DNA from: a bacterium
GTDB taxonomy: Bacteria; Muiribacteriota; UBA6191
Assembly (NCBI GenBank): GCA_036339875.1
Contig: JAYZAC010000143.1
Coordinates: forward strand, 1-39,961
Length of the DNA stretch: 39,961 nt
Direction: 5' to 3'
Shown here: in pieces, positions 6,103 to 27,579 of the stretch
How positions within the stretch are numbered: the stretch's first letter is position 1
Layout: each line of letters opens with the position of its first letter
The notes under the pieces: model-generated
Seen by the model: the letters and a program-made list of their open reading frames with translations, nothing else
Databases searched by the model: none
Told to the model about the DNA's origin: nothing
Made by a program: the position numbers and the translations under genes

Positions 6103-6714
6103 TTGTCCGTTTTTTTCCTTTGTCTGAAGGTCGATACAGCTTCTATGACGCGGTCAAGAATGATTACAAGTTGGCTTTTTTTGTTGACATTATATTGTAG
6201 TTTTTCTAATCCGTGCATTCGTTGGATTCTACACAACACAAACACTGCAAGTTTGAAGTTACAGGATGAGTTTGTAACTCAGTATCATCACTCATTTCCA
6301 GAACATTTGGATGTTAGTATTCATAAAACTTGCTCATCTAAATGGCGAGTTGAGGGATATATTTATCGAAATGATTTTAATGCTCCCTTTCTCAATTCTA
6401 TTTTCGGGGCTTTTGGTTCCTCTAATAGTTCCAGATCGGAGATAATACAACTAAATTTTTCAGTCTCTGATGTACAAATTCCGGACAGGGATGCTGAGCA
6501 TGTTTTGATTGAATATTTAATATCGGATAAAAGCCATAAACGAAATCAAGTTTTACATGATTTAATTCAGTCTTTTAACAAACAACTTCTAAGTATTATG
6601 GAGGCTGAATCGTTGGATGGTCCGATTTACTTAAAGTCTGGTAGTAATAGCTCCACGAAGGATCATCTCGAATTCTGGTTAAAACAGGATTTTGACTTTA
6701 AGACTCTGCGCTAA
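6103..6714 (+). CDS. Hypothetical protein, possibly exported
   Basis: 203-aa ORF filling the gap; start uncertain (an internal ATG precedes hydrophobic WLFLLTLYC). Confidence 0.5.
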   Translation: MSVFFLCLKVDTASMTRSRMITSWLFLLTLYCSFSNPCIRWILHNTNTASLKLQDEFVTQYHHSFPEHLDVSIHKTCSSKWRVEGYIYRNDFNAPFLNSIFGAFGSSNSSRSEIIQLNFSVSDVQIPDRDAEHVLIEYLISDKSHKRNQVLHDLIQSFNKQLLSIMEAESLDGPIYLKSGSNSSTKDHLEFWLKQDFDFKTLR

Positions 6715-6715
6715 G

Positions 6716-9430
6716 TTACTGTGGTCTAAAGGTTTTTTGGTCAATCACATGCGGCCAAGCCTCCTCAAGGGTTATTTGACCTGTGTGTATAAGATCCTTT
6801 AATGTTTGATCTAGAGATATCATTCCATCTTTTTTCGATGTTTCAATCATTGTAGGTAATTGTTCAGTTTTACCATCTCGAATTATATTTTTTACTGCGG
6901 GGGTATTGATCATTATTTCGCAAGCGGGGATTCGTCCTCCGCCCGTTTTTCTTCGCAATAAGCGTTGCGAAACTATGGCTTTGAGATTAAAAGCAATTTG
7001 TTTACGTATATGCTCTTGATGTTCTGCTGAGAAGAAGTCCATTAGTTGCTCTACTGCAGAGGTACAAGTTGGGGCATGCAAGGTTGTAAGCACGAGGTGC
7101 CCTGTTCCAGCGAGGGTGATTGCAGTTTCCACACTTTCTTCATCTCGCAATTCGCCAATCAAAATTACATCTGGGTCCTCACGTAAGGTTGCTCTGATTC
7201 CACTTGGAAACGAGCTTACGTCTCTCAATACTTCTCTTTGCGAAATATAAGACAGTTTGGAAGTATGTAGATATTCGACTGGATCTTCAATACAAATAAT
7301 ATGCTTATGAGCTAAAACGTTAATATAATTAATCATCGAGGCGAGAGTGCTAGATTTGCCTGATCCGGTGGGCCCAGTCAGAATAACCAGCCCATTTTCC
7401 AAGGTGCTAATTCTCTGCATGACTGAGGTAGGTAATCTTAAACTTTCAAAAGTAGGGACTTTGTCAGATATAAACCGGCCAGCTAATTCGTAGCCAACTA
7501 GAGTTTTATAAATATTTATTCTTAAGCGTGTTCCAACTTCCGTTTGATAGGACGTGTCAACTTGAAAGTTTCTCTCTAATCTATCAAGATGCTTATCTTT
7601 CAAGATTTGTTTTGCAAAGATAACAACATGCTCATTGTTGATTTCCGATTCACGCATGCTTGATAATTTTCCGTTAACACGAATTATTGGCGGATGTCCA
7701 ACTTTTAAGTGAATGTCCGACGCTTCAAGGTTGAACGCCTGTTCAAGTAGAGTATTTAAATCAACTGGATAATGTTCAGAGTCGCTTGTATCCGGTAACG
7801 ATGTTATATCAGTTTGATAATTGGAAGCATTTTGTGCTGCCACAGTATTTTGTTGGTCTATGCCCACATTAATTGCCCTGGAGCTTCCGGTTTGTGATGC
7901 GTTTTCGTTGATTGATTGTTCTATTTTAAATAGCACAGGATTTTTTTTTCGTAACTGCTGGCAGAGTATGTTTTGATCAGCTAACTTGAGATTTCGTAAA
8001 TACAGTTGAGGCGAGTCAAACCCTTGAGTAATCTGATCTATGAATGCTTCAGCACCAATCAACTCCATTCGTTCTAAGGTTTTCAATGACCAGAAAAGGA
8101 TATTTTGATTTTGAGAGCAGCTTCCGATTAGAAGATACACAATCGGATACTGGCTGCATTCGACAAACAGTTCACTGGCTCTTTGTCTCACTTCCCAGCG
8201 ATCATTATCGAATGCTTCAATAAAAATCTCACAACATTCTTCGGTATTAATTTGAGATATTGTTTCCAAGGCAAGTAAGCGTAATTCTTTATCTTCAGAA
8301 TGAAGTAGTGTGGATATGCTGCTTAGAGTAGTAGGTTCAGCTATGGCTCCCAAACTATTTAATGCCCAGTATACAAGATCTTTTTCAGTAGACTTTAAGG
8401 TTTCGAGTAGAGGGCTAATGGCGTAGGTTTGTAATTGACTTAACTTTTCCATAGCAACTTTTCTAATGGCATAGCGTTCGTCTATAAATCGTCGGATAAG
8501 AATTCTTGCAGTTTCCTGAGACTTGAAGCTTCCCAAATGAATTACGGCTAAATAGCGAGATTGAGCATCGCTAGATTCGAATAACTCTGATAAATCCGAA
8601 ACCACCTCATGTCCGTAGCAATTTGCTGCGACCCTAAGCATGGTTTCAAGAGCTAAACCGTCCAATTTGCTTTTAAGCAGTTTGATAACATCATTTTTAT
8701 GGTTAATAGCAACTTTACACAATGAGCGAAAAACTTGTTCACGTATCAGAAAAGAATCAGTTTTCAGGAAATTTAAGAGACTTTTAATGACTCTAGGATC
8801 ATCAATCTCGCCTAGATTTGATACTGCATACAATGATATTTTCTCATCGTCGGGTACTTCTTTAATAAATTTGGAAAAATATTTTACTGCACTGCTTCCC
8901 AATATTTTGGCAAGGATCTTAAACGTCCAAAATCTTTGATGATCGTTACCATTAATAAATTTATTTTCTATAAAAGGCACGACCTTTTCACTCATAGTAA
9001 TAAGATTTCGAGAGGCTCTTTCGCGAATTTCCCAGTTATCGTTTGCCAATAATTGATATAGAAAAGATGTAAATTCTTCTCGTTCTAGATTAGGATTATT
9101 ATCCAGAACCATCTTACGAATATGATGATTTCCAGATTGAAATAAATTTTCAATAAGTTTTACTGAAATGCCAGATTGCTCTCTAATGATGGTTGTTAGC
9201 CAATAGCAAAGCGTCTGTTTCCGCTCTTGATCTGACTCTGCAGATATTTGATTTAATAGAAATTCGTGAGCTTCAACGCCGCCGTCAGAGAATATTTGGC
9301 TGGCTGATTTACGTATATTCCAGTCCTCATGGAACAGATATAAGATGAGTTGCTTCATTCCCTCAGAGGAGTCTTCTTGAATATTTGTTCTGATTTCGTC
9401 GAGCATTTGATCAAGAAATTGTTGGCACAT
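6716..9430 (-). CDS. HEAT-repeat / PilT-PilU family type IV pilus ATPase fusion
   Basis: aa ~555-904: ASDIHL, Walker A GPTGSGKSST, Asp box IEDPVEY, Walker B DPDVILIGELRD, His box TGHLVLTTLH, AVKNIIRDGK (AIRNLIRE-like). aa ~30-460 are HEAT repeats. Confidence 0.9.
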   Translation of the reverse strand: MCQQFLDQMLDEIRTNIQEDSSEGMKQLILYLFHEDWNIRKSASQIFSDGGVEAHEFLLNQISAESDQERKQTLCYWLTTIIREQSGISVKLIENLFQSGNHHIRKMVLDNNPNLEREEFTSFLYQLLANDNWEIRERASRNLITMSEKVVPFIENKFINGNDHQRFWTFKILAKILGSSAVKYFSKFIKEVPDDEKISLYAVSNLGEIDDPRVIKSLLNFLKTDSFLIREQVFRSLCKVAINHKNDVIKLLKSKLDGLALETMLRVAANCYGHEVVSDLSELFESSDAQSRYLAVIHLGSFKSQETARILIRRFIDERYAIRKVAMEKLSQLQTYAISPLLETLKSTEKDLVYWALNSLGAIAEPTTLSSISTLLHSEDKELRLLALETISQINTEECCEIFIEAFDNDRWEVRQRASELFVECSQYPIVYLLIGSCSQNQNILFWSLKTLERMELIGAEAFIDQITQGFDSPQLYLRNLKLADQNILCQQLRKKNPVLFKIEQSINENASQTGSSRAINVGIDQQNTVAAQNASNYQTDITSLPDTSDSEHYPVDLNTLLEQAFNLEASDIHLKVGHPPIIRVNGKLSSMRESEINNEHVVIFAKQILKDKHLDRLERNFQVDTSYQTEVGTRLRINIYKTLVGYELAGRFISDKVPTFESLRLPTSVMQRISTLENGLVILTGPTGSGKSSTLASMINYINVLAHKHIICIEDPVEYLHTSKLSYISQREVLRDVSSFPSGIRATLREDPDVILIGELRDEESVETAITLAGTGHLVLTTLHAPTCTSAVEQLMDFFSAEHQEHIRKQIAFNLKAIVSQRLLRRKTGGGRIPACEIMINTPAVKNIIRDGKTEQLPTMIETSKKDGMISLDQTLKDLIHTGQITLEEAWPHVIDQKTFRPQ

Positions 9431-9589
9431 CTATTCCGCCTTTACTTTCGAACTGTTAAGCTAACCCTTACACATACTGGAGTAGAAAGCATTTTACCTT
9501 TAATTAGATTTGGAATCCAATTCACTGGCATTGTCGAATGCTTGCCTGTAACATACGGCCTTTCAAAAACCTGTAGTAAAGTAGAGTAA

Positions 9590-10432
9590 ATGTCACAGAA
9601 CGAACTCATTAGAGTAGGCATGATTGATTTTTTAAATGGTGCTGTCCCAGATTATCAATTGAATTTAAATGGATGTGAAAAGATTTATGGAATGCCCTCA
9701 GACTTAAATAGCAAATTAAGAAGAGGTGAATTAGATGTTTCTCCGGTGAGCTCAATGGAATACATTCTTAACCATATGAAGTATAGAATTCTTCCTGGTT
9801 TGTGTATACGAGCGGATCGACGGGCGGCAACAGTTGGTGTTTTTAGTTCTTTACCCCCTCAAGAATGGCATCGAAAAAAACTTTATTTATCTGGTGCTTC
9901 GTTAACCTCGATATATTTACTAAAACTGTTATGTAAGGCTTATTATAAAATCCAACCCGTATTTATTCAGCAGTCACTAGATAATGTGATTCATGAAAAC
10001 CTTTCTGATGCTCTTAAGTACAATGATGCCATGCTTATCATTGGAGATAGAGCTTATGAGGAACAGAAAACGATGAGTTCAGATATCACTTACTATGATT
10101 TGGCTGAAGCTTGGAGAGCTTGGACAGGATTACCTTTCATTTTTGCACTATGGCTTGTACGAAGTGAAATAGTAGATTTACGTCGGTCATGTATTGCGGA
10201 AATCCATAAAGCTTTTCTCAGATCGATTAGCTTAGGTCTTAAGAATCTTGATGATATTTGTGACCAATTATCATACAAATGGTCTCGTAAACAGATTATG
10301 GAATATTTTCAAATCAATTTAGCTTATGATTTACATGAGGATGGCATTCGTGGACTAACAGCTTTTATTCACGAACTTTACTGTCATAATTTAATTCCAC
10401 AAAAAGTTTCCTTACGGTTCTTTGAATCCTAG
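9590..10432 (+). CDS. mqnA: Chorismate dehydratase MqnA (futalosine menaquinone pathway)
   Basis: RVGxIxFLN, PSDLNxxLxxGELDVSPVSSMEY, SLTS, LIIGDRA, DLAEAW..WTGLPFIFALW. Confidence 0.85.
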   Translation: MSQNELIRVGMIDFLNGAVPDYQLNLNGCEKIYGMPSDLNSKLRRGELDVSPVSSMEYILNHMKYRILPGLCIRADRRAATVGVFSSLPPQEWHRKKLYLSGASLTSIYLLKLLCKAYYKIQPVFIQQSLDNVIHENLSDALKYNDAMLIIGDRAYEEQKTMSSDITYYDLAEAWRAWTGLPFIFALWLVRSEIVDLRRSCIAEIHKAFLRSISLGLKNLDDICDQLSYKWSRKQIMEYFQINLAYDLHEDGIRGLTAFIHELYCHNLIPQKVSLRFFES

Positions 10433-13144
10433 ACCCGAAGGGTTTTGTTGATTGGACTTGTTTTCTAAACACCGATTGAGTGCTGCTATTAAATCTTGCG
10501 CAGAGCATGGTTTATGCAGAAATTCCTTGACCCCAAAAGATCTGAAAATTTGGATATAATCTTCTGTAAGTTTACCACTGAGTACTATAAATTTTGGTTG
10601 ATCTCGAGTAAATTTTTTAATAATAGATTCGCAAAGTTTAACTCCGTCTAAGGGTGGCATTTGCACGTCAGTAATGATTACATCAGGTGGACGATTCGCT
10701 TTAGTTATAGCTAACATAGCTTCATTTCCATTATTGTAATTCTTGATATTTTGATAACCAGCTGATTGTAGAATTGTGGTGATTAACTGTGCAATTGCTT
10801 TTTCGTCATCTACGATGTAAATGATCGAGTTCAAAGAATGAATTGCAGTTTTCTCATTTTGAGGCGATTTAGTCGTTTGTTTATGGGCTTCACGAATTGG
10901 GATATAAATTGAGATCTTTGTACCAATACTTAGAATTTTTTGTTCATTATTTTGATAATCACCCCGACTCAAATCCCCGCGCGTTGCAGTGTGAACTTCT
11001 ATTCGACCCTCATGAGACTTTACCACTGAAAAGACCATCGCGAGACCAAGTCCCGTACCCTTTCTGTAATCGCGATTTTTCGTAGTGAAAAAAGGATCGA
11101 AAATGCGAGGCAAAATGTTCTTATCAATACCTGTACCCGTATCCAATACATTAATCACAATATGATTATCAGTTTGTTTGACGATAATACTAAATCGCAT
11201 CTGAAAATCAGATTCTGTGTTCTGTGAGATCTCTTCTTCCATAGCATGCATACTATTAGCTGTAAGGTTTATTAATGCATCGCGAAGCTGACCTCTATCT
11301 AAGAGACATTTCGGTATAGTACCTAAAATTTGTACATTAACATCAATGCCTCTTGTTTCTAGTTGATGCTTCATGATTCCCATTGCATCATCGATTACTT
11401 CTTCTATGTTCGTTGGTTCGGTTTTAGATACATTGGATCTGCCTAATGTAAGTAATCGATTTGTAAGATCACTAGCTTTTCCCACGTATTTACTGATATT
11501 TTTTAGATTAAATAATATTTCATCAACCGGTTCGTTTTTCTTAAGTAAGACACTGGCAACCTCCGAGCTGAGGCCGATTGCAGCTAAAATATTATTGAAA
11601 TCATGAGCAATGCCAGCAGCTAAAGTTCCAAGTCCAGCAAACCTTTCCGCCCTAATTAAATCCTTCTGAGCATTTGCTAGTTTTTGTTCGGCAAAATGTT
11701 TATCTGTTATATCGCTTATTATTCCAATCGTGCCATTGAACTTTGGATTAGAGGAGATATCTTTTGTCCAATAGCCACTTGAATTAACCTCAGTGAAAAA
11801 AAAATTTGGATGATTATTGGGTAAATTGGGATAGAGGTCTGAAAAATTAACGTGTGGACCTGGAATTATTCTGACTTTAATTAATTTGGAACCTCTTTTA
11901 CCTGTACGTCTTTCATCAAATAGGCCGGGTGCGTTCTTATCTCCTGTGGTCTTACCAAGGTACTTTGGAAGTACAGCATCTCGCGACACACTATTAAAAT
12001 CATCGGTATGGACTATTTCCTTAAAGTGCTTACCGATTAAGTCCTCGCGCATGTAACCCCATTTGATAACTTCCTGGCTAATATATAAGAAGTTGCCGTT
12101 CTCGTCTAAGCGATAAAGCACTTCAGGTATGGTTTCTAGTAGTGACTTTAATTCAGTCTGTGTGGCCAGACTTTCATGCATAAACCTAAAAGTATTTAAG
12201 TGGCTTGATAGAGTACGCGAAATAGTTTGAATCTGTTGAATATCCAAGTCATTGAACTGTCTCGTGCTATTGAGCACCTGTAAAACACCAAAAACTTTAT
12301 TTCCCAAAAGTAAGGGTGTAACAAGAGCAGATTTAGTCAAAAAGCCCGTTACCTGGTCGATTGATCTTGAAAATTCATGTTTCTCGTAAGGCTGATTTGT
12401 AAAAAAGGTTCTTTTGGTTTTAAGGCAGGAACCAACTAAACCTTCATATTTTCTAACAATGATGGGTTCATGTAATCCTTCAGCATGGATTGATTGTAGT
12501 ATTTTTTTGGATTTGTCATAAGCGAAGAAGGTGCTGCGTTCTGCACAGAAATGTTTGCTGATGATAGGGCAGCTTAGGGCTATTAATTGTGCTGGGTTGC
12601 TGATTTCCGCACTATTTTGAAGGAGCTTATTAAGACTGAACCTAGTGTGCATTAAAGCTAAATCTTTCTGCTTTGACTGCAGTTGATAAGCGACGCTCAT
12701 ATATGTCATTATTCGTTCTAAAATAATGACATATTCCATATTAATTTCTGTACCACTAAAAAGAACAAATGCTATGACTTTCCGGCCCTTCATTAAAGGA
12801 AAGTAGTGTAAGATTTCTCCGGTATTACCTTGAGTTGTTGTTAAGCCAGACTGGATTCGTTGAGTGTCATTCCAGCTCATATACGTTTTAATTTTTATTA
12901 ATTTTTTAAGTATGTTTAGTTGGTCCCTTGGCTCAGTATCTAAACATAATTCGGGATTTCCGTAGATAGTTAAAAAAGAACGCTGACTGCGACTTACTAA
13001 CCCATAATGGTTAGAGTTTACCAATTTAGATATTTTCTTTAGTATTGCTGGGATATATTTAGCAGAGTCCTTTGAAGAGAGAAGGGACACTTGAATTTCT
13101 TTGCCCAGATCTTCAAGCTTGCTTAAGGTTGTTTTACTCATCAA
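10412..13144 (-). CDS. Hybrid sensor histidine kinase (GAF-PAS-HisKA-HATPase-REC)
   Basis: GAF (IDQVTGFLTKSALVTPL..GVLQVLN), PAS, H-box AGIAHDFNNIL, INLTANSMHAM, DTGTGI, FDPFFTTK, GTGLGL, receiver IVDDE..DVQMP..KP. Confidence 0.92.
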   Translation of the reverse strand: MMSKTTLSKLEDLGKEIQVSLLSSKDSAKYIPAILKKISKLVNSNHYGLVSRSQRSFLTIYGNPELCLDTEPRDQLNILKKLIKIKTYMSWNDTQRIQSGLTTTQGNTGEILHYFPLMKGRKVIAFVLFSGTEINMEYVIILERIMTYMSVAYQLQSKQKDLALMHTRFSLNKLLQNSAEISNPAQLIALSCPIISKHFCAERSTFFAYDKSKKILQSIHAEGLHEPIIVRKYEGLVGSCLKTKRTFFTNQPYEKHEFSRSIDQVTGFLTKSALVTPLLLGNKVFGVLQVLNSTRQFNDLDIQQIQTISRTLSSHLNTFRFMHESLATQTELKSLLETIPEVLYRLDENGNFLYISQEVIKWGYMREDLIGKHFKEIVHTDDFNSVSRDAVLPKYLGKTTGDKNAPGLFDERRTGKRGSKLIKVRIIPGPHVNFSDLYPNLPNNHPNFFFTEVNSSGYWTKDISSNPKFNGTIGIISDITDKHFAEQKLANAQKDLIRAERFAGLGTLAAGIAHDFNNILAAIGLSSEVASVLLKKNEPVDEILFNLKNISKYVGKASDLTNRLLTLGRSNVSKTEPTNIEEVIDDAMGIMKHQLETRGIDVNVQILGTIPKCLLDRGQLRDALINLTANSMHAMEEEISQNTESDFQMRFSIIVKQTDNHIVINVLDTGTGIDKNILPRIFDPFFTTKNRDYRKGTGLGLAMVFSVVKSHEGRIEVHTATRGDLSRGDYQNNEQKILSIGTKISIYIPIREAHKQTTKSPQNEKTAIHSLNSIIYIVDDEKAIAQLITTILQSAGYQNIKNYNNGNEAMLAITKANRPPDVIITDVQMPPLDGVKLCESIIKKFTRDQPKFIVLSGKLTEDYIQIFRSFGVKEFLHKPCSAQDLIAALNRCLENKSNQQNPSGLGFKEP

Positions 13145-13157
13145 AGTATATTGACTA

Positions 13158-14627
13158 CTAGCTATTGCCCGTATGGGATTCCTGTAAAAATCTCATTTCA
13201 AATGCGACCTTAAATGAGCGCCAAAGCTCTTCGAATGATTTCACCCTTCCTAGCGCTCTCAGAACATATGAGGGTCGGTAGTAAAATTCCATGTAGGCTT
13301 TGTGACATAACTCTTGGATTTCCTGGTCAGTCATATTACAGCCAGGCCTAGGTATCGCTATCTGAGATGTTGGATTTTTGATGTAGTCTTTCCAATAATC
13401 TTCCTTAAATTCTTGCAAATAAAGTGCATATAATTGAGTTGCAGGCATCGGTGTGACTTTCGAGAACTGAGCGTAGTCTAGATCTAGTGTTTTTGAAAAA
13501 TCGATAGTTTGTTGAGCAGTCTCTGGCGTCTCACCAGGAGAACCAACCATAAAATATCCAAAGGTATCGATCCCCACTTTTTTGGTGAGAGCTATTGTTT
13601 TACGCATACGGTCAAAATTGGTATCTTTTTTGAGTGTTTTGAGGATACATGCATTACCAGATTCAATACCGTAGTAGACTCTGTTACAACCCGCTCTGGC
13701 TAGCATTACGAGCATTTCTTCATTCATACAATCTACACGCGAGCGTACGGCCCAGTGGACTTTAAGGCCTGAATCTATTATTGCCTGACATACTTCCAGT
13801 ACTCTCTTCTTATTAATTGTGAAGCTGGAGTCGAACATGTCGAATTCACGAATTCCATATTTTTCGTAGCAGAGCTGGAGTTCTTCCAATACATTTTCAG
13901 CACTACGTCCTCTAAATTTAAGTTCCCCTTGTTCACAAAAAATACATTTGAAGGGACAACCTCTTGAGCTTACAAAGCAAGTAAAATTTTTATACTTGGT
14001 TATAAAGGAGAAATATTTGGAATTATCAACTAGATGTCTCGCTGGAAAATGAGCGTTATCAACATTTTGCAATTGTGGTGCCGGTCGTGTTCTTCGGTAG
14101 CGACCGTCACGCTTGAATATAATACCTGGTACTCCGCTGAAGCCATCTAGGTCCATGACATCGCATTCGAGAAACATTGGCAGTGATATTTCTATTTCAC
14201 CGATGAATCCAACATCAAAAACATCGTGACTCATACTTTCCTCGGCGTAGATACCCATGTGTACACCGCCCACTAATACCGGGCATGGATAGGCTTCTTT
14301 GAGGTTTCTTGCAAAGTCTAAATTTTCCTTAAATTGATATGTAGTGAGAGTGTATAAGATGTAGTCAGGCTGGAATTTACGCAGAGTTTCTATTGTTGTC
14401 TCTATTGGTTCCGGATTAGCATTTAGGTCGATGAACAAACAATCATGCCCAGCTCCTTCAGCTGTTCCCGCTACATATAGTAAACTAAGAGACGGGAAAA
14501 CCCCGTAATTTTCCTTCACAACTTTGAGCCCGGGTTCGTTGTCAATGACACCATAAGGGGGATAAATAAAGGCTAACTTTTTAGGATTCGAAGATCGGAA
14601 ATCCTTTATTTCGTTTTCCTTGAGCAC
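13158..14627 (-). CDS. Cobalamin-binding radical SAM protein (class B methyltransferase / BchE-like)
   Basis: CxxxCxxC in RGCPFKCIFC; B12-domain PSLSLLYVA and VGGVH; GIESGN, FMVGSPGET; GTG start with GAGGAG RBS. Confidence 0.9.
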   Translation of the reverse strand: MLKENEIKDFRSSNPKKLAFIYPPYGVIDNEPGLKVVKENYGVFPSLSLLYVAGTAEGAGHDCLFIDLNANPEPIETTIETLRKFQPDYILYTLTTYQFKENLDFARNLKEAYPCPVLVGGVHMGIYAEESMSHDVFDVGFIGEIEISLPMFLECDVMDLDGFSGVPGIIFKRDGRYRRTRPAPQLQNVDNAHFPARHLVDNSKYFSFITKYKNFTCFVSSRGCPFKCIFCEQGELKFRGRSAENVLEELQLCYEKYGIREFDMFDSSFTINKKRVLEVCQAIIDSGLKVHWAVRSRVDCMNEEMLVMLARAGCNRVYYGIESGNACILKTLKKDTNFDRMRKTIALTKKVGIDTFGYFMVGSPGETPETAQQTIDFSKTLDLDYAQFSKVTPMPATQLYALYLQEFKEDYWKDYIKNPTSQIAIPRPGCNMTDQEIQELCHKAYMEFYYRPSYVLRALGRVKSFEELWRSFKVAFEMRFLQESHTGNS

Positions 14628-14637
14628 GTTTCACTCC

Positions 14638-15537
14638 TCATTTCCGGCGTACTGAGCCCACCAAACCTGCGGAAAGTTTCATTGAAAATGCCCAGAAGCA
14701 AAGTACCGCTGCCAAGCAAAATAATCGTACTGACTTATGAGTTTTGAGTGCAGAGCCCGAAGCCACAAAAACCCAAATGAAACTATTCCATACAATCTCT
14801 ATTATAGAGCATTGATGCATTTGATGCGCTAAAATCTGACTTTTAGAGTGATTATAAATAAGCTTTGTTAGTGATAGTAGTGAATCTTGTCGCAGGTGAA
14901 ATACCTTGAAATCTGGTTCATATTGTATGTTATGACCCATATTTTTTAAGCGAAGCGAGTACTCAATATCTTCACCATAATTACCCATTTTTCTATCAAA
15001 TTCACCTACTTTTCTTAAAATTTCTCGCGAGGCGGCAAAAGCTATTCCAAAAAAATATGGTGCTTCCGGTATTCTTTGATAGCCTTGCGTTTGGATCCAA
15101 AAATATCTTCGGAATTTGTTTACTAAACCTGTTTCGGGACTTCGATATTCTGCTCCTGCTATTAAGCTTTTCCCGTCCCAATGTTGAACAATTGATGCAA
15201 ACGAGCCTTTAATCAATACTGCATCAGCATCCAAAAAAATTATAAAATCGCCTTTACATTCTCTCAATAAAACATTTCTAGCGTTTGCAAGACCTTGGTT
15301 TTTTTCTAATGTTATACATCGTGTAATAGGAGGTAGCTCTTGTTCGGGAAGAGGGGAACCATCAAGAAGTACTAATATCTCGCAAAGTTTCCAAGGATTT
15401 AATTCTTCTTTAAAATCTACTATGGCAGTTAAAACATTAGAAATACTTTCCGGTTTACAGTAGTAGGGGATCAATACAGAACAATTTTTGATTAAGTTCA
15501 TAGTTTTATTATATCTATCCCGACACCAGTCATACAT
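14638..15537 (-). CDS. Glycosyltransferase family 2
   Basis: SVLIP, LLDGS, NQGLANARN, DxD in FLDADA, GEDIEYSLRL; hydrophobic C-terminus. Confidence 0.88.
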   Translation of the reverse strand: MYDWCRDRYNKTMNLIKNCSVLIPYYCKPESISNVLTAIVDFKEELNPWKLCEILVLLDGSPLPEQELPPITRCITLEKNQGLANARNVLLRECKGDFIIFLDADAVLIKGSFASIVQHWDGKSLIAGAEYRSPETGLVNKFRRYFWIQTQGYQRIPEAPYFFGIAFAASREILRKVGEFDRKMGNYGEDIEYSLRLKNMGHNIQYEPDFKVFHLRQDSLLSLTKLIYNHSKSQILAHQMHQCSIIEIVWNSFIWVFVASGSALKTHKSVRLFCLAAVLCFWAFSMKLSAGLVGSVRRK

Positions 15538-15624
15538 TTAAGATCAAAAAAAAACAAAAAATGTCTTACAGTTTAGGGTTCTAAACGTTAAAAGTTGTTT
15601 GATTTGCACCGAAATCATTTTGTA

Positions 15625-16872
15625 ATGAAGCGTATATACTGTCTATTTTTATTCCTACTTCTATCAACCGCTAGGAGCGATGCGCTAATGATGAAAGGTA
15701 GCATCGAGGTGGTTAAGGGGCGTGCTTATGTTTATCGTAATGGGCGCGTAATTCAGGCAGCCGATGATATGACAATTTACACTGGTGATGTAGTAGAAAC
15801 TTCGCGACATGGATCGATTTTACTTCAAATGATGGACGTCGGAATCATCAAACTCAAGCCTTTAACACAAATAAAATTTCCAGAAAATGACACTGATCAA
15901 ATTCAGGTGTCACAGGTTAAGCTATTGTTTGGTGAGGTATGGGCAAAAATTCGCAAGATGAAAGCAGGTGAAAGTTTTGAGGTTTTCACTAAACATGCTG
16001 TGTCTCTTGTCAGTAATGCAATTTCTGTAGCGGCTTTTGATAAAAGGCGTAGCAAGTCAACATTCAGTATTATCGAGGGTGATGTAGAAGTTCATAAAGA
16101 TCAGAATCATTATTTTATGACTGCTGGAGAGAAAATCGTCTTGGATGGTCGTAAGAACTCAAAAGCTAGACATCGTAAAATAGATATTTATCGCTTAAAT
16201 CAAGATTGGAAAAAAGTAATTACCATTCGAGAAAAATTAGGACGTAAATTCAGAGAAAGTTTGCGTATGACTTCTAAATCGGGCAAGGATCAGGATTACG
16301 AAGCACCGTTGGTACATATTGTTAATCCAGTTGAAGGTGTACCAATTAAGAATCGCAGAGTCACTATTCGAGCAACTATATATGAAGAACATTTAGATAG
16401 GCTTATTCTGACGGTTAATAAGAAAGTAGTCCATGATGTCAATACTAGCTTGAAGTCTTTTGCCAAGGAGATATCGCTTCAGCCCGGTGAGAATATTGTA
16501 GAACTCAAGGCAATTGATCGTTTTGGTAATTTTGGAGTAGATGAGAAGGTATATAAGTTAAATGATATGCCGCCATCGATTAGTATATTTTTTCCTTTTG
16601 ATAACCTTGAACTCAACACAAGATTTGTTAGCCTCCAAGGCGTTGTTGATGATCCTGATGTTCGAGAAGTTAAAGTCTATCTAAATAATCGAATGATAGC
16701 TAGAGACAGAGCTGTACCCACTTTTCGAATTCCCATTATTTTAGATGTAGGTGAAAATTTGATAAGAGTAGAGGCCACAAATAAAGTCGGTTTAACGGGG
16801 AAAAATGAAATAACTGCGTATACGACTAAGCAATCGAATGTCGTTATTCAATTTAATCAATTTTTGAATTAA
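15625..16872 (+). CDS. Exported FecR-domain protein with two C-terminal Ig-like domains
   Basis: Signal peptide MKRIYCLFLFLLLSTARSDA; FecR pattern (GDVVET, LLFGEVW, FEVFT, IEGDVEV); Ig-like APLVHIVNP..LQPGENIVELKAIDRFGN and PPSISIFFP..GENLIRVEATN. Confidence 0.75.
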   Translation: MKRIYCLFLFLLLSTARSDALMMKGSIEVVKGRAYVYRNGRVIQAADDMTIYTGDVVETSRHGSILLQMMDVGIIKLKPLTQIKFPENDTDQIQVSQVKLLFGEVWAKIRKMKAGESFEVFTKHAVSLVSNAISVAAFDKRRSKSTFSIIEGDVEVHKDQNHYFMTAGEKIVLDGRKNSKARHRKIDIYRLNQDWKKVITIREKLGRKFRESLRMTSKSGKDQDYEAPLVHIVNPVEGVPIKNRRVTIRATIYEEHLDRLILTVNKKVVHDVNTSLKSFAKEISLQPGENIVELKAIDRFGNFGVDEKVYKLNDMPPSISIFFPFDNLELNTRFVSLQGVVDDPDVREVKVYLNNRMIARDRAVPTFRIPIILDVGENLIRVEATNKVGLTGKNEITAYTTKQSNVVIQFNQFLN

Positions 16873-16876
16873 TAGT

Positions 16877-18628
16877 ATGAAGTACAAATTGCGACATATT
16901 TATCTTTTGGGGCTCATCAGTTTGAGTCCTGTCTCAGCTACTTCCGACTATGTAAAAGACTTTATGAAAGTTGTTGAAGATAGCGATTATTTTTCACCAA
17001 TAGAGAAAGATTTTGCTAGACAATTAATGAACGGTGCAGACATGGATGACTCAGTCTTAGACGCAATTATAGAGTCTCCAGTTATTTCTTCTAAACAGAA
17101 AGAAATGGCCAAGCAGTACTTTCAAGAAAGGCAAAAACCGAAGCGTGTGAAGTTTAAACAACGCCGCTATGACAAAGATATTCAGTTAGTTAGTCCTCGT
17201 ATGAGATTCCATGGTGATTTTGATTTCCGACTTAGAAGCATAGATACTGCTAGAGATATTTCGAATCATTTTCCATTGGATAATGCAGATCAGGACCCCG
17301 GAATTGCTCACATAATTAAAGGTCAATTGCGTTATCGACCTGAGGGTCAGAAAGATCCAAAATCTTGGGGTCAAATCGATGTAGATGTGCAAGGAAGAGA
17401 CGGTGAAACAGAAATTATTAATGGTCATTTTCAAAATGATCAAAATTATCTAAAAATTGGAACTTTTTTAAGTCCTAATATGAGCGAGTTTGGATTGAGA
17501 AATACCGAATTCTCTGGTGTACATTTTCATTGGGAACAGAATAAGTGGAACATAGATGTTCTTAGAGGAGATACAGTTGAGGATTACGTTCCCAACCTAG
17601 ATAGTTTGAGCGTGGGAGGCTTCGTAGCAAGGCGCTTGTTAAAGAATAATTCTCGAGATTATATTGGCTTGAGTTATTTTGACTCATCTGATTCACACTA
17701 CTTTGGAGTTTTAGGACAAGCATTTATGCTTGATAATAATCTAAAACTGTACTCCGAAATTGTAAAACAGGATGTAGGTACGCCCGGACAAGATGCGACC
17801 GCTGTCGAATTTGAAATTGATTTTGAAAATGAAAAAGTTATATTTCTTAATGAGATACAGAAAACGACAGCTTTCTTTCAATCGAGTCTAAATCCCGAAT
17901 ATTCAAATCTGGGAACAAGTCTAAGCGAGTATCAAAATCAAGAGCATGCTTTCACTTATCGTTTTGATCCATATGTGACCAGTTCTGTGGTCCTTAATTC
18001 CAGAAAAGTTACTCCATTAAACGGCATCTCTGAATTTGATTCCATTGATGGAGCTTGGACATTAATGACGCATCGACCAGATCGACCTAAGTATATGTTT
18101 GTTGTAAAGAGCTCAAGCAATCAGGATACCGCAAATAGCTCAATTGATGATCGACAGTTTATTATGATGGGTCGGAGTTCTTGGAGACATAGAGATATAC
18201 TGACTCATGTTGATGTCATGCGCACAGACTTTACTGATCATTTATTAACCGACAATTCATACGTATTAAATTCGGTATCAGTTGAATTTTCGAGGCCGTT
18301 TTTAAATAAAATTCGAGTTAAAAATAAGCTAACTTTGTTGGATCAAAATTTTGAAAATTCAGTCAACGATGCAGAGTCTCAGCACAATATGTTTCAAGTG
18401 GATTATCAGATGGATAGTCGCACAAGTCTACAAGGACGACACAACTATCGTCGCGTGGCTCGCAAGGCCTTTACGAATAAATACAAGAATATTTGGTCGT
18501 TAGATGCTAGACGTCAAGTAGATGAAAATTTAGCCTACAACTTAAGGCTAAGTTCTTACAATAACAATGAATTCACTCGAGGTTACGACGCAGCTCTTGT
18601 AAGCCTAGGCGCTGACTTTAGCTTCTAG
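16877..18628 (+). CDS. Putative outer-membrane beta-barrel protein
   Basis: Signal peptide, short helical N-domain, many alternating amphipathic strands, C-terminal LGADFSF ending in Phe (BAM-type signal). Confidence 0.7.
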   Translation: MKYKLRHIYLLGLISLSPVSATSDYVKDFMKVVEDSDYFSPIEKDFARQLMNGADMDDSVLDAIIESPVISSKQKEMAKQYFQERQKPKRVKFKQRRYDKDIQLVSPRMRFHGDFDFRLRSIDTARDISNHFPLDNADQDPGIAHIIKGQLRYRPEGQKDPKSWGQIDVDVQGRDGETEIINGHFQNDQNYLKIGTFLSPNMSEFGLRNTEFSGVHFHWEQNKWNIDVLRGDTVEDYVPNLDSLSVGGFVARRLLKNNSRDYIGLSYFDSSDSHYFGVLGQAFMLDNNLKLYSEIVKQDVGTPGQDATAVEFEIDFENEKVIFLNEIQKTTAFFQSSLNPEYSNLGTSLSEYQNQEHAFTYRFDPYVTSSVVLNSRKVTPLNGISEFDSIDGAWTLMTHRPDRPKYMFVVKSSSNQDTANSSIDDRQFIMMGRSSWRHRDILTHVDVMRTDFTDHLLTDNSYVLNSVSVEFSRPFLNKIRVKNKLTLLDQNFENSVNDAESQHNMFQVDYQMDSRTSLQGRHNYRRVARKAFTNKYKNIWSLDARRQVDENLAYNLRLSSYNNNEFTRGYDAALVSLGADFSF

Positions 18629-18641
18629 AATAAGTAATCTT

Positions 18642-20354
18642 CTACGAATAATGTAGAATGCTTTCTATGCGGTACTTATCTAGTTTCTTTCTACCTGATA
18701 GGAAGTCTAATTCAATTAAGAATAGCATTTGTATAACTCGACCTTCGGCATTTTCAATCAATTGAGCAGTTGCTGAGGCGGTACCACCCGTCGCCAACAC
18801 ATCATCTACTATGACTACATTTTGCCCTTGAAGGTGTCCGGCCTGGACTTCTAATTCAGCGCTTCCGTATTCAAGCTCATAGCTTACACTCATGCACTCT
18901 CCAGGTAATTTACCTTTCTTACGAATTGGGATAAAACTACAACGCATTGCTTGAGCTAGTGCGGCCCCAAAAATGAAACCACGAGATTCAATTCCTGCAA
19001 TTACATCCACTTTGCAGCCTCTTAGTTGAGATTCAAACATTTTGACCACATCAGAAATACCGTGAGCCGACATTAATAGTGGAGTTATGTCCTTAAAAAC
19101 GACACCAGGTATAGGGAAATCGGGAATATCTTTAATTAGATTTCTAAGTCTTTTTGTAATTCCTCGTTCTTTTTTTGATTTTAGATCGTTGAAAATCGAG
19201 CGAGTAAATTCTTGCACCCACTCATCATTTACTTGCTGACGAACTTCTTTGGTTTCACCCAGCTTGTTTAAGGCGACCAGTGCATTTTTTCTAACATATT
19301 CACTACTATCTCGAAGAGCGTCAACCAAATCAAGTGTACTTGACTCTTCTCCCATCTCTCCAAGTGCCTGCGCGGCAGAAGCTCGGACACTCCAAGTGAC
19401 ATCATGTTTCATGATTTTAACTAATTCTGGTGCATATTGCACAGCCTGCAACTCACCCAAAACCTTACAAGTCCAGAATCTAATATTGTCATTTTTACTT
19501 TTTAGAGAGCGGCCAAGCTCATCTTCTCCATATTCTCCAACTTCCCATAGAGCATCAGCAGCTAACTTTCGAATGATCCAATTTTCATCTCCGAGCATCT
19601 GAACGAGTGGCGGGATTACCTCTGATGACTCAAAGTTTCTCAAGGCGGTGATGAGTACTTGTTTTTGATCAATGGTCGTCTTGTCGGAAAGAGCCTTATC
19701 TATGAGTGCTTTTCTAGCTGAGTCTCCACCAATCTGACCAAGAATTTGAATTGCCCAAAACTCCAAGTCTGGAGTTTTACAGCTCGTTAGTTTAGCAACT
19801 CCTTTAACAGCTTCTGGGCCTAGTTGGACCAATGCTGAAGCTGCACTTCTGCGAATTGTCCAAGGAGAATCTGCAAGGCAGTCAAGCAATGGTTTAACGG
19901 CTTCTTTCACACCTGTTTTACCTAGCGCTGATATTGCGCATAATTTCCGAGGCAGATTATCACTCTCCATGACTTCAACCAATGTTTTCACAGCTTTTGT
20001 TCCGAACTGCGATATCACCTCGCAAATCCAGAATTGTATATCGTCATCATTGCTTTTGGCGAGATCTAGAAGCATGTCGAGAAATGAATTTCCCAGTCCT
20101 ACTAAAACTTTGGAGGCATTGCGACGAACTCCATACGAAGTATGCTTCAAAGCTTCTATCATTTGGGGAATAACTGCGTCACCTTTGTCTTTAAGGATAC
20201 GAATTGCCTCGCGCGTGACAGCTTCGTTTTCGTCACTAAGGGCCTGTACTAAAAGCGTCAAACTATCCCCATCGGGGATATCTTTGAGTGCTACAACGGC
20301 TTCTTTACGAACTCTAAAATCCACATCGCGTAGTCGTTCTAAGAGGTCTTTCAT
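18642..20354 (-). CDS. apt: HEAT-repeat / adenine phosphoribosyltransferase fusion
   Basis: aa ~400-570: IPDFPIPGVVFKDITPLL, GIESRGFIFG, RKKGKLPG, YELEYG, PRPP motif VVIVDDVLATGGT. aa 1-370 are HEAT repeats. Confidence 0.92.
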   Translation of the reverse strand: MKDLLERLRDVDFRVRKEAVVALKDIPDGDSLTLLVQALSDENEAVTREAIRILKDKGDAVIPQMIEALKHTSYGVRRNASKVLVGLGNSFLDMLLDLAKSNDDDIQFWICEVISQFGTKAVKTLVEVMESDNLPRKLCAISALGKTGVKEAVKPLLDCLADSPWTIRRSAASALVQLGPEAVKGVAKLTSCKTPDLEFWAIQILGQIGGDSARKALIDKALSDKTTIDQKQVLITALRNFESSEVIPPLVQMLGDENWIIRKLAADALWEVGEYGEDELGRSLKSKNDNIRFWTCKVLGELQAVQYAPELVKIMKHDVTWSVRASAAQALGEMGEESSTLDLVDALRDSSEYVRKNALVALNKLGETKEVRQQVNDEWVQEFTRSIFNDLKSKKERGITKRLRNLIKDIPDFPIPGVVFKDITPLLMSAHGISDVVKMFESQLRGCKVDVIAGIESRGFIFGAALAQAMRCSFIPIRKKGKLPGECMSVSYELEYGSAELEVQAGHLQGQNVVIVDDVLATGGTASATAQLIENAEGRVIQMLFLIELDFLSGRKKLDKYRIESILHYS

Positions 20355-20387
20355 GATGTCTCCTGGTGCTCGACTTCTGAGGCTTGA

Positions 20388-21521
20388 TTACATAGAAAGC
20401 GACATGATAACACAGACATGCTCGAGGTTTTCTGACTGATTCTTTGGCCAAAAATAAGCAGGCATACCCTCTCCCTCACATTGAATGGCTACCGTATTAT
20501 CGCCAATTGACCCGAGATAATCCAACAGAAATTTAGAATTGAAGGCAACTGTCATTTCCTCCTGAACTTTTGAACCTTCCTCAAGACCAATTTCACGGTA
20601 ACCTTCTCCAAATTTTTCAGAAAATGAACTAATACCAAGTTGTTGAGGGTGAATTTCTAACACGATTCTATTTCCCGATTCACGTGCTACGGGTAACAAG
20701 CCTTTGAGATGCCCAATAAATCGACTATTATCAAGATGAAGACCTTCTGAAAGATCCTCTGGAATATAGTCTTCGTAGTCTACAAACTCTGCATCAGAAA
20801 GAGCAGATTGGAAAATAGTACTACCAAATTGTAATAGAAATTTATTGTGTTGCTGACGTATTAAAATAGGGTCGTCCGGTAGAATTTTGAGTAATTCGGA
20901 AACCACGTCCATTGAGATTAACCAGCGAATCTTTTGATCTACCTGGATCGGAGAGGGGCTAGTCGCTTTGACTAGTCTGTTACCATCCATTGATGCTACT
21001 GTGAGTTTGTTACTTGAGATATCCATACAAATACCTCGAAAGCCTTGAATTGAATTTTCAGTGGTAGCGGAACAAATGCTTCCAATTTTTAAGATATCTT
21101 TGAGATTGCTGCCAGGAATTTCCATTTCCATTTCTGCAGTAATTAGTTCCACCTCTGGGTAATCTTCTTTGCCTCTTCCCGGTAGTTCATACCTTGCAGA
21201 TTCTCCCTCCAACGTTAGCAAAACCCGATTATTACTTGGATTAACATCAATCAGGATCTTTTCTTTGTTGAATTCACGAAGATTGTGTATTAATTCTAAA
21301 AAAAATTGACCTTGAACTAGAATTTCTCCCGGTCGATCTATTTCGGCTTTAATTTGAGTTGAAATAAAAGTTTTGATGTTCGTAGCACTTAATCGTATCG
21401 CATTATCTAGAGTTTCCAGACGAATGTGAGTAAGTTCGGGTATGGCTGTGGTAGTCGGCAATGCGCGCGTAGTAATTTGTAATGCGTTCTGAAGTTCGTT
21501 TTTGTCACATACAATTTTCAT
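20388..21521 (-). CDS. dnaN: DNA polymerase III beta sliding clamp (divergent)
   Basis: 377 aa; LSATN, PGEILV, DYPE, ASMDGNRL, FVDY, AFNSKFLLD, terminal VIM; AGGAG RBS. Confidence 0.85.
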   Translation of the reverse strand: MKIVCDKNELQNALQITTRALPTTTAIPELTHIRLETLDNAIRLSATNIKTFISTQIKAEIDRPGEILVQGQFFLELIHNLREFNKEKILIDVNPSNNRVLLTLEGESARYELPGRGKEDYPEVELITAEMEMEIPGSNLKDILKIGSICSATTENSIQGFRGICMDISSNKLTVASMDGNRLVKATSPSPIQVDQKIRWLISMDVVSELLKILPDDPILIRQQHNKFLLQFGSTIFQSALSDAEFVDYEDYIPEDLSEGLHLDNSRFIGHLKGLLPVARESGNRIVLEIHPQQLGISSFSEKFGEGYREIGLEEGSKVQEEMTVAFNSKFLLDYLGSIGDNTVAIQCEGEGMPAYFWPKNQSENLEHVCVIMSLSM

Positions 21522-21558
21522 ATGTAAATCTCCTGAAATGTTTGAAGTGGGGCTGTGG

Positions 21559-21587
21559 AGTATAGCGGAAGCCTTTTATAGAGTCCA
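21559..21587 (-). promoter_or_regulatory. Candidate sigma70 promoter for dnaN
   Basis: Minus strand TGGACT (21587-21582), 17 bp, TATACT (21564-21559); back-to-back with the ffs promoter. Confidence 0.45.
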
Positions 21588-21598
21588 GTATACTAGTC

Positions 21599-21626
21599 TT
21601 GCAATTAATTAGATTTTTGCTACAAT
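21599..21626 (+). promoter_or_regulatory. Sigma70-type promoter of SRP RNA
   Basis: TTGCAA, 16 bp, TACAAT with extended -10 TG; 7 nt upstream of the predicted RNA 5' end. Confidence 0.65.
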
Positions 21627-21633
21627 CGCGGCC

Positions 21634-21755
21634 GGAAGGTGTTGATCTGAGTCTCCAGTGGCAGCGAACAGCCCCGAACCCCGCCAGGTCCGTGATGGAA
21701 GCAACGGTAGGGAATCTGTTGGTGTGTTGTTGGATTTGGGCTCAGGGAGCCTTCC
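21634..21755 (+). ncRNA. ffs: Small signal recognition particle RNA (4.5S)
   Basis: Helix-8 core GAACCCCGCCAGGTCC-loop-GGAAGCAACGGTAGGG; long closing hairpin (GGAAGG/CCTTCC, CTGAG/CTCAG, AACAG/CTGTT) followed by a T-run. Confidence 0.9.
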
Positions 21756-21853
21756 CTTGTTTTTTCGGAGCTAACTAAAAAAACCTAATGTCTATCGCTT
21801 CTCATTTTTAAAAATTTTTATTATTCTATTGATGTGCCTAATGGTATTTCGTT

Positions 21854-22864
21854 ATGGATAATCTAAGTAATCAAATCGGGTCATTTGAGTCAATTGAGGT
21901 TGAATTTGGGGATTTGGATTCATCAGATGATGGTTCATGGGAAGAGAGATATGCTTCCTTAAAGCTTCTTGTACAAAGCGATGCGGGTGATCTCTACAAA
22001 CTGCGTGAAATGAAAGACGCACTCAACGATAGTAACGCTGCCGTTCGTTATTTGGCCGCGAATAGTCTCAAAGCGCTCGATTGTGAAGGGGTGGTAGATG
22101 CATTATTGTTTGCACTCACTGATTCGTATGAATGGATAAGAATTAGGGCTATCGAGGGTCTGGGTGATCGGCGGGCAGTTGAAGCTGTTGAGCCCTTCAT
22201 TCAATATTTAGATAAAGATTCTAATCCCAAAGTTAGGGCTACACTCGTGAAACATCTTGGGCGATTTTGTGAGTTGAAACTGGTTCCCTTGATTGCCTCT
22301 TATTTGTCTGATGATGATGCCCGTGTTCGCGCTAATGCTGTGGAGGGTTTGGGATTTTATCCACCAGAATTCGTTGCCGATATTCTTCGTCCTCTCAAAG
22401 ATGATGATAATGCTCGAATTCGTGCTAATGTTGCAGTGGCCTTATCCAAAGGAGAAGCAAATGTATCCAGAGGAACAATTGATCAATTGCTTAGCTCTCC
22501 AGATCTTTATGAGCGTATGGGTGCAATCTATTCTATTGGCGAAACGAGAGAAGAGACTTATATTCCCATTTTATTGCAGTATTTGAATGACCCGTCTTAC
22601 CTTGTGCAGCGCAATGTTTGTGATGCTATGATCAAATTCGGTATCAAATTGCAAGGGATTTTATTAAAGGAAATCCGCACAAGAAAGACTGAAAGTTTTT
22701 TACTGGGTTCTCTCAGAGTGCTTGCCTCTATCGCAGACAAAAAGGCTTTGAAGACTTTACTTAAACTTCAGGAGACTGGAGAAGGAGAAGTTAGAGAGGC
22801 TGCGGAAAGGGCGATCGACGAGATTTACTCACGCGCCAAACGACTTCCTACTCACGTCATCTAA
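21854..22864 (+). CDS. Stand-alone HEAT-repeat protein
   Basis: Repeats such as DSNAAVRYLAANSL, DSNPKVRATLVKHLG, DDDARVRANAVEGLG, DDNARIRANVAVAL; acidic N-terminus. Confidence 0.85.
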   Translation: MDNLSNQIGSFESIEVEFGDLDSSDDGSWEERYASLKLLVQSDAGDLYKLREMKDALNDSNAAVRYLAANSLKALDCEGVVDALLFALTDSYEWIRIRAIEGLGDRRAVEAVEPFIQYLDKDSNPKVRATLVKHLGRFCELKLVPLIASYLSDDDARVRANAVEGLGFYPPEFVADILRPLKDDDNARIRANVAVALSKGEANVSRGTIDQLLSSPDLYERMGAIYSIGETREETYIPILLQYLNDPSYLVQRNVCDAMIKFGIKLQGILLKEIRTRKTESFLLGSLRVLASIADKKALKTLLKLQETGEGEVREAAERAIDEIYSRAKRLPTHVI

Positions 22865-27468: not shown

Positions 27469-27579
27469 GCTAGATGCATTATTCTTTTTGAAATCTGATA
27501 TAAGACTCCAAGTTTGATACTAAATCCAGTAGAATGTCTCGGTGGAAGCGGACTTGGATATGGACCTTCCCAAAATAGT

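Follow-up and report, generated by a model that had tools for sequence, protein, structure and literature searches.

Contig C143 (GenBank JAYZAC010000143.1), a stretch of 39,961 nucleotides that is referred to below as the window, is part of a metagenome-assembled genome (MAG) of 2.9 Mb that is 85% complete and has ~38% G+C. It encodes two fusion proteins in which an N-terminal array of HEAT repeats precedes an unrelated enzyme, a PilT-like motor ATPase in one (HEAT::PilT) and an adenine phosphoribosyltransferase (APRT) in the other (HEAT::APRT), as well as a third, HEAT-only protein (HEAT3). We find that, as judged from sequence, both fusion arrays are one recognisable subtype of the PBS-lyase-type HEAT_2 array and not a new fold. 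The reading we consider likely is that a paralogous HEAT_2 subfamily, with repeats in a fixed A-B-C order, extends across the sampled relatives of the phylum, that the two fusions of the window are independent of each other, that their arms are probably tethered binding modules and that they do not form a dedicated system linking pili with purine metabolism.

The A-B-C signature and the arrays that carry it

The signature that marks the subtype consists of [WYF]-x-[IV]-R followed by [FY]W with its Trp 35 residues on, within three-repeat units of ~92 aa. In repeat A, the residue three places ahead of the canonical Arg is aromatic, mostly Trp; in repeat B, [FY]W comes right after the Arg position. 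The signature and the other main features of the window are placed as follows.

6716 to 9430, minus strand: HEAT::PilT fusion gene, 904 aa (Pfam HEAT_2 and T2SSE)
7931 to 9334, minus strand: five ~92-aa three-HEAT units, PilT fusion residues 33-500, with [WYF]-x-[IV]-R starting at W37, W133, F227, Y320 and W412 and the [FY]W Trp at 77, 168, 355 and 447
7766 to 7915, minus strand: linker rich in Q, N, S and T, PilT fusion residues ~506-555, of low model confidence and weak conservation
6752 to 7759, minus strand: complete PilT/PilU-family ATPase domain, residues 558-893 (TIGR01420)
18642 to 20354, minus strand: HEAT::APRT fusion gene, 570 aa, with a phosphoribosyltransferase domain after the HEAT_2 repeats
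19314 to 20147, minus strand: three ~92-aa three-HEAT units, APRT fusion residues 70-347, with the pairs Y74/W109, W165/W200 and W259/W294
18648 to 19157, minus strand: APRT catalytic domain, residues ~400-569 (TIGR01090, Foldseek)
20388 to 21521, minus strand: dnaN, the beta sliding clamp (Pfam), sole copy found in the genome
21854 to 22864, plus strand: HEAT3, 336 aa, HEAT only

An initial annotation, made from the DNA sequence of the window, had described this unit in both fusions, and every residue position that it gave is correct. The 5-aa insertion before W77 and the absence of an FW partner in the F227 unit are both visible in the unit alignments, and its list omits F13 and W321, which are also [WYF]x[IV]R sites of the APRT fusion. 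Its estimate of a unit of ~91-96 aa is borne out by BLOSUM autocorrelation, which peaks at lags of 92 and 187 in the PilT fusion and of 94 and 185 in the APRT fusion, giving a ~92-aa (three-HEAT) period in both. HEAT3 peaks at 31, 62 and 93; the two fusion arrays are therefore truly three-repeat in period and HEAT3 is not, which agrees with the different, RVRANA-type repeat assigned to it at the outset and with its lack of the signature.

The pair motif is rare in the genome. Among 4,070 six-frame open reading frames (ORFs) of at least 80 aa, five contain it, and four of these are HEAT arrays that together hold 12 pairs; the fifth, on contig C202, was considered as a further array and rejected, being an M16 peptidase with a single pair. 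A hidden Markov model (HMM) of the unit finds 20 HEAT ORFs in the genome, of which 16 lack the signature. The four carriers are HEAT::PilT, HEAT::APRT, a 945-aa HEAT::PilT-like ORF on contig C43, with five pairs spaced 91-94 residues apart, and a HEAT-only ORF with one pair at the end of contig C21. The generic HEAT_2 and HEAT_PBS families match all three window proteins, but among the HEAT ORFs the signature is confined to these four. Elsewhere in the genome, two adenylate/guanylate cyclase proteins of ~1,070-1,100 aa (C6:8504-11803 and C154:4461-7667) end in C-terminal generic HEAT_2 arrays in which the signature is absent.

Profile and pairwise comparisons bring the carriers together. In HMMs built with one protein left out, the PilT and APRT arrays each rank the other in the top 3-4 of the 20. 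A PilT-only HMM scores the C43 ORF at 170 bits, the C21 ORF at 123 and the APRT fusion at 100, the next match reaching 53; an APRT-only HMM scores C43 at 133, C21 at 100 and the PilT fusion at 99.5 bits. By BLAST, the PilT arm matches C43 at 1e-44 and the APRT arm at 2e-14, and the APRT arm matches C43 at 1e-24, so the C43 arm is the closest in-genome relative of both window arms, and HEAT3 matches generic arrays only. The signature keeps its positions across orthologues of 29-92% identity. In full-length orthologues of both fusions the pairs recur at the same positions down to 46-53% identity, the first pair being unmatched in three distant APRT-fusion orthologues (P0094-P0096) and in one shorter cluster representative (P0093).

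The unit is also found well beyond this genome. A profile of 25 units, searched against 1.84 billion representatives, matches 47,109 proteins at E ≤ 1e-3 and 1,261 at E ≤ 1e-30. Among the best 150 of the 47,109, 85 have at least one signature pair and 65 at least two, typically 91-94 residues apart. These 85 carriers comprise 45 HEAT-only proteins, 10 with a detectable PilT domain and 30 with other extensions, the last made up of 12 with TPR, one with NACHT and 17 with HEAT-type Pfam matches only, five of which have tails of 300-420 aa. The 65 unsigned matches in the best 150 are mostly giant generic HEAT proteins of at least 1200 aa, and in none of them was a PilT or APRT domain detected; an APRT fusion is absent from the best 150 altogether. 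Cluster members include proteins named PilT/PilU ATPase (Candidatus Wallbacteria) and TadA (Candidatus Riflebacteria) and a Candidatus Muiribacterium protein. A listing of attached domains, which had been put forward with the initial annotation, thus returns PilT fusions together with TPR and NACHT, but most of these carriers are HEAT-only and have neither enzyme.

Structural register and the limits of the subtype

All three window proteins pass the cut-offs of Pfam HEAT_2 (PF13646; 91.8, 227.3 and 133.8 bits against 27.7), itself a model of 88 positions and three repeats, and of HEAT_PBS (PF03130; 27.5, 78.8 and 43.5 bits against 20.9), and the Pfam HEAT family matches too. In AlphaFold2 models the arms are helical throughout, a helix pair recurring about every 31 residues, with predicted local distance difference test (pLDDT) values around 90, as over residues 20-500 of the PilT arm; the model of the APRT fusion has a pLDDT of 83.9. 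Confidence drops between arm and enzyme: residues 512-542 of the PilT linker lie below 50, with means of 27-35 over 10-residue blocks, and the connector between arm and APRT is also low. Mean orthologue identity to the window residue is 0.65 for the PilT arm, 0.82 for the PilT domain and 0.30 for the PilT linker, and 0.66 for the APRT arm against 0.69 for the APRT domain. Linkers that are poorly conserved and modelled with low confidence are consistent with a tethered module. An ESM Atlas search with the PilT arm returned generic HEAT clusters only.

By sequence and, APRT aside, by fold, the best matches among solved structures are alphaRep chains, artificial proteins designed from the natural HEAT_2/HEAT_PBS-type family. 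The window arrays keep the register of this parent family, V-R-x-x-A-A-x-A-L-G, and differ from alphaRep and from HEAT_2/HEAT_PBS arrays in their fixed A-B-C order of ~92 aa in place of a single 31-aa unit. In the available part of the alphaRep article (PMC3754942), positions 18, 19, 22, 23, 26 and 30 are the variable ones, and the concave faces comprise evolvable surface residues. In a HMMER alignment, W259 coincides with the first variable position ahead of V-R, and F293/W294 coincide with the two positions that follow V-R; on this alignment the signature residues correspond to alphaRep positions 18 and 22/23, which are concave-face in alphaRep. Unlike alphaRep, the window arrays hold invariant aromatics there, at position 18 in repeat A and at 22/23 in repeat B, so that in this register the signature occupies positions that are normally variable in the family and are frozen here. 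The position-23 Trp is invariant in seven of seven B repeats scored, and the position-18 aromatic in six of eight A repeats.

Invariant aromatics at positions that the alignment makes surface-variable in the parent family could line a small-molecule groove for a nucleobase, nucleotide or tetrapyrrole, as in the binding of bilins by PBS-lyase HEAT proteins, and the arm would then be a ligand sensor. PilT and APRT both handle adenine compounds, and in NCBIfam the arrays weakly resemble NblB, CpcE and CpcF, with every score below its cut-off. The scores fall far short, however: 57.9, 89.4 and 56.0 bits for the three window proteins against an NblB cut-off of 300, and 30.2, 86.2 and 26.6 against a CpcF cut-off of 220. 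The signature is also present in long HEAT-only and TPR proteins, and we regard a ligand groove as very improbable indeed.

Several observations weigh against the reading of the arms as a well-bounded subfamily of binding modules. With the APRT-only HMM, a generic array on contig C126 scores 95 bits, close to the 99.5 of the PilT fusion, so that the edge of the subtype is graded and not sharp. A tree of 56 units of ~92 aa, in which 32 of 53 inner branches are open, does not unite the PilT and APRT units: it recovers positional orthologues, groups APRT units 1 and 2 together and contains a weak group of PilT-fusion unit 2, C43 units 2-3 and Wallbacteria units 2-3, and it neither joins nor separates the arms. 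The Wallbacteria and Riflebacteria assignments are by record titles alone. Finally, the position-23 Trp may pack between repeats and not bind anything, since, in the portion of PMC3754942 available, that position mostly has small side chains in alphaRep, probably owing to crowding between neighbouring modules. The shared repeat module of the initial annotation accordingly stands as one HEAT subtype, on the restriction of the signature to four of 20 ORFs, the HMM ranking and BLAST; the joint grouping of the two arrays in a repeat phylogeny finds no support in the unit tree.

Taken to its extreme, this doubt would leave no distinct subtype at all, with the ~92-aa period and the Trp positions incidental to generic HEAT_2 arrays. 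Such a view can point to the three-repeat HEAT_2 model that matches all three proteins, to the 47,109 proteins reached by the unit profile and to the largely open tree. It is hardly credible given that the signature is missing from 16 of the 20 HEAT ORFs and occurs only once outside HEAT among the 4,070 ORFs, that its positions are kept down to 29% identity and that the 91-94-residue spacing recurs in 85 of the best 150 matches; conservation, rarity in the genome, recurrence in the best 150 and presence in stand-alone orthologues (below) largely refute it.

Separate histories of the two fusions

The enzyme domains named in the initial annotation both score above curated NCBIfam cut-offs. In HEAT::PilT, TIGR01420 (PilT/PilU) reaches 409 bits against 319.1, with profile positions 2-336 of 343 at residues 558-893. 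Orthologues show hardly any variation in the Walker A (GPTGSGKS), Asp-box and His-box stretches, and G686-K692, E715-P717, D752-D754/E760-D763 and T776-V780/H785 are invariant in 14 of them. Walker B, Asp box and His box are the customary names of PilT motifs. The motif names are used in the available part of a paper on Myxococcus xanthus PilT paralogues (PMC13584747).

The protein thus resembles PilT/PilU type IVa retraction ATPases in its full-length domain and in the conserved Walker A, Asp box and His box, and differs from them in its ~500-aa N-terminal HEAT arm on a ~50-aa linker and in its position away from pilus genes. The closest non-HEAT relative of its ATPase domain, protein P0019 (40% identity; pilT_fam, 440 bits), likewise carries an accessory domain N-terminal to a complete PilT, but there the accessory domain is cyclic-nucleotide-binding, whereas that of the window protein is a repeat solenoid and not a known ligand-binding domain. 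We found no description of a HEAT-PilT fusion in the literature searched, and the word HEAT is absent from the available text of the M. xanthus paper (PMC13584747).

Full-length HEAT::PilT orthologues are present in nine of nine same-family genomes and, at 37-38% identity in frames of ~920 aa, in five of eight same-class genomes, alongside extra paralogues at 25-32% identity, the C43 type among them. This second fusion (C43:4736-7570, also L027:4784-7573; ~930-945 aa) has an ATPase domain that scores 173.8 bits against the PilT cut-off of 319; it and the Riflebacteria protein retain the Walker A lysine but have other residues in place of the Asp-box Glu/Arg and of both His-box histidines. Its gene lies between genes of 547 and 696 aa, near atpI-atpB-atpE. 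On the evidence of these matches, HEAT::PilT is an old multi-paralogue family that is found also in MAGs titled Wallbacteria and Riflebacteria. In addition, many matches to the PilT domain only (37-41% identity, residues ~550-900) occur in frames of 900-1,010 aa in the same-phylum genomes G013, G018, G019, G024, G025, G029, G033 and G035-G040, so that N-terminally extended PilT-like proteins seem to be common across the phylum.

The HEAT::PilT gene is monocistronic, divergent from mqnA (9590-10432) and convergent with 6103-6714, and no pilus genes adjoin it in the window. As its divergent neighbour, mqnA recurs in eight of the eight relatives' loci that reach upstream, at 50-88% PilT-fusion identity; it belongs to menaquinone synthesis by the futalosine pathway, and a functional link to HEAT::PilT is not evident. 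The genome has 17 T2SSE matches, including six GspE/PilB-like proteins of ~580 aa and several PilT-like ones of ~350 aa, many secretion or pilus ATPases for so small a genome, and four T2SSF platform genes (8 domain matches), none of them beside HEAT::PilT.

The second enzyme is likewise a typical member of its family. HEAT::APRT scores 192.5 bits with TIGR01090 (cut-off 185.85) and 217.1 with NF002636 (cut-off 125), its APRT domain matches 4lza_B in Foldseek with a TM score of 0.89 and 50% identity, and the phosphoribosyl pyrophosphate (PRPP) loop DDVLATGGTA is invariant. It is unlike other APRT in its ~390-aa N-terminal HEAT arm; the other APRT fusions met in the search involve methylthioadenosine (MTA) phosphorylase, SecF or MtnA-type domains, not HEAT. 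The fused gene is the sole APRT found in the genome. Neither a HEAT-APRT fusion nor a HEAT gene downstream of dnaN was found described in the literature searched.

Comparison with relatives suggests how this fusion came about. HEAT::APRT is fused in nine of nine same-family genomes. In one of them, of the same genus, it is split into two adjacent-frame matches (G002:C26:16919-18783; residues 1-172 and 152-570), which implies a frameshift, real or from assembly error. In five of five same-class genomes with an orthologue, one contig carries a gene for a HEAT protein of 449-491 aa, 36-41% identical to residues 1-395 of the fusion, and a separate apt gene. Four of these five loci read dnaN, HEAT, an ORF of ~280 aa without a Pfam match, apt, a HEAT3 orthologue (33-38% identity) and a gene homologous to 23124-25088 of the window; the fifth has HEAT directly next to apt. 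From more distant members of the phylum, HEAT orthologues of 29-30% identity were retrieved in three genomes, right after dnaN in two of the three, with apt elsewhere. In seven of these eight relatives' loci, the HEAT orthologue has dnaN immediately upstream. The stand-alone orthologues carry the signature in eight of eight cases (seven with three pairs, one with two) and in the same places, and seven of the eight end in a Cys-x2-Cys ... Cys-Pro-x-Cys-Gly ribbon, on which, in one protein scored, Pfam DZR gives 29.3 bits against a cut-off of 27.3.

Separate neighbours in the class and one fused gene in the family imply that the window's family fused a dnaN-linked HEAT-zinc-ribbon gene to apt and that the ribbon was lost. 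This parallels Rosetta-stone fusions, the partners being neighbours in five class genomes and one gene in nine family genomes, and departs from the plain case in that both the zinc ribbon and the intervening ~280-aa ORF disappeared on fusion. Gene order further indicates that an inversion then left HEAT3 divergent from dnaN. HEAT3 is, on its repeats and its place in these loci, an old neighbour in a dnaN-HEAT-apt-HEAT block and a plain 31-aa PBS-type array without the signature. In the same-class locus scanned for it (L032:3647-7002), the HEAT3 orthologue and the 23124-25088 homologue are separated by hprK, encoding HPr kinase; the window lacks hprK between their two counterparts, which adjoin each other, and a complete fliG (25162-26175) comes next. 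Further along the window (27514-39576, plus strand) is a 4,020-aa ORF with a signal-like N-terminus, long Ser/Thr/Asp-rich repetitive regions and, near the C-terminus, Asp-rich repeats of the D-x-D-x-D-G type, which precede a hydrophobic C-terminal tail.

The steady company of dnaN raises another explanation, in which the dnaN-linked HEAT protein, and with it the HEAT::APRT arm, is associated with the replisome or the clamp, adenine salvage takes place at or is controlled by the replication machinery, and the PilT arms are paralogues with other partners. The HEAT gene follows dnaN on the same strand in seven of eight loci across families, and in the window dnaN is upstream of HEAT::APRT with a gap of 33 bp; the idea that this dnaN is a specialised second copy is ruled out by its being the only one found in the genome. 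The stand-alone form ends in a zinc ribbon, and the arm is as conserved as the enzyme. Adjacency alone is nevertheless weak evidence of interaction, and no clamp-binding motif was identified, in work that included no systematic motif search. The block also holds apt, hprK and an outer-membrane protein gene, so that the adjacency to dnaN may be mere conserved gene order, and we think a replisome role improbable.

Tethered modules or one system

The initial annotation had gone on to suggest that the shared super-repeat is a common docking module that joins the PilT motor, APRT and HEAT3 on one scaffold and links pili or DNA uptake with purine salvage. Both fusions do have the signature subtype, which is strongly conserved, the models show flexible tethers for both arms, and the three HEAT genes lie within 16 kb in a block whose gene order is kept in relatives. 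Between HEAT::PilT and HEAT::APRT, however, lie 9.2 kb and six unrelated genes of mixed orientation, namely mqnA (+), a hybrid histidine kinase (-), a B12/radical-SAM gene (-), a GT2 glycosyltransferase (-), a FecR-domain gene (+) and a 583-aa gene (+), an arrangement that argues against co-transcription. Sequence comparison and gene order indicate that the two fusions arose independently, and in same-class relatives the counterpart of the APRT-fusion arm is a HEAT-zinc-ribbon protein in its own right. HEAT3 has no signature and is closer to generic arrays, and neither enzyme is present in most carriers (45 HEAT-only and 12 TPR of the 85 among the best 150 matches). Co-folding of residues 1-505 of the PilT fusion with residues 1-375 of the APRT fusion, using orthologue alignments and run without controls, gave a score of 0.00 (mark, 0.32) and weighs neither for nor against binding. 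On gene order, history and distribution, a common scaffold is very unlikely, and a system that links the pilus motor with purine salvage finds no support. The notion of a dedicated three-gene cluster fares no better: HEAT::PilT occurs in genomes where HEAT and apt are unfused, the synteny belongs to the whole block, and the linkage conserved in four of five class-level loci ties the APRT-arm HEAT gene, apt and HEAT3 together and leaves PilT out.

A more general form of the docking idea sees the A-B-C arms as an adaptor family of candidate phyla, whose concave aromatic stripe recognises a single ligand or scaffold shared by all, for example a nucleotide-like molecule or a peptide motif. Were this so, such adaptors would place or gate PilT motors, both active and degenerate, a zinc-ribbon protein coupled to dnaN and, in one family, APRT, and the shared docking module would be right in kind, although not as a pilus-purine system. 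We consider this unlikely. Under the reading that we favour, of independent fusions within one paralogous subfamily, the arms are probably flexibly tethered binding modules: each, a rigid solenoid held by a flexible linker, would position or regulate its enzyme by binding a partner, and the partners need not be common to different arms.

What is new here is that both arms belong to the same A-B-C subtype, that the signature falls at positions that align with alphaRep 18 and 22/23 and that it is also present in the stand-alone precursor linked to dnaN. Annotation usually labels HEAT arrays as nondescript 'HEAT repeat proteins'; the signature provides a simple, checkable marker of a conserved subfamily, one that is joined to pilus-type motor ATPases in several uncultured phyla and that, in relatives across one of these phyla, is encoded by the gene after the sliding-clamp gene. 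HEAT::APRT adds a stepwise case in which a housekeeping enzyme gained a 390-residue arm through fusion with a neighbour. If the arms bind defined partners, they would offer a handle on how PilT-like motors are regulated or positioned in little-known bacteria; otherwise, they make a tidy case of the lineage-specific expansion and fusion of repeat domains.

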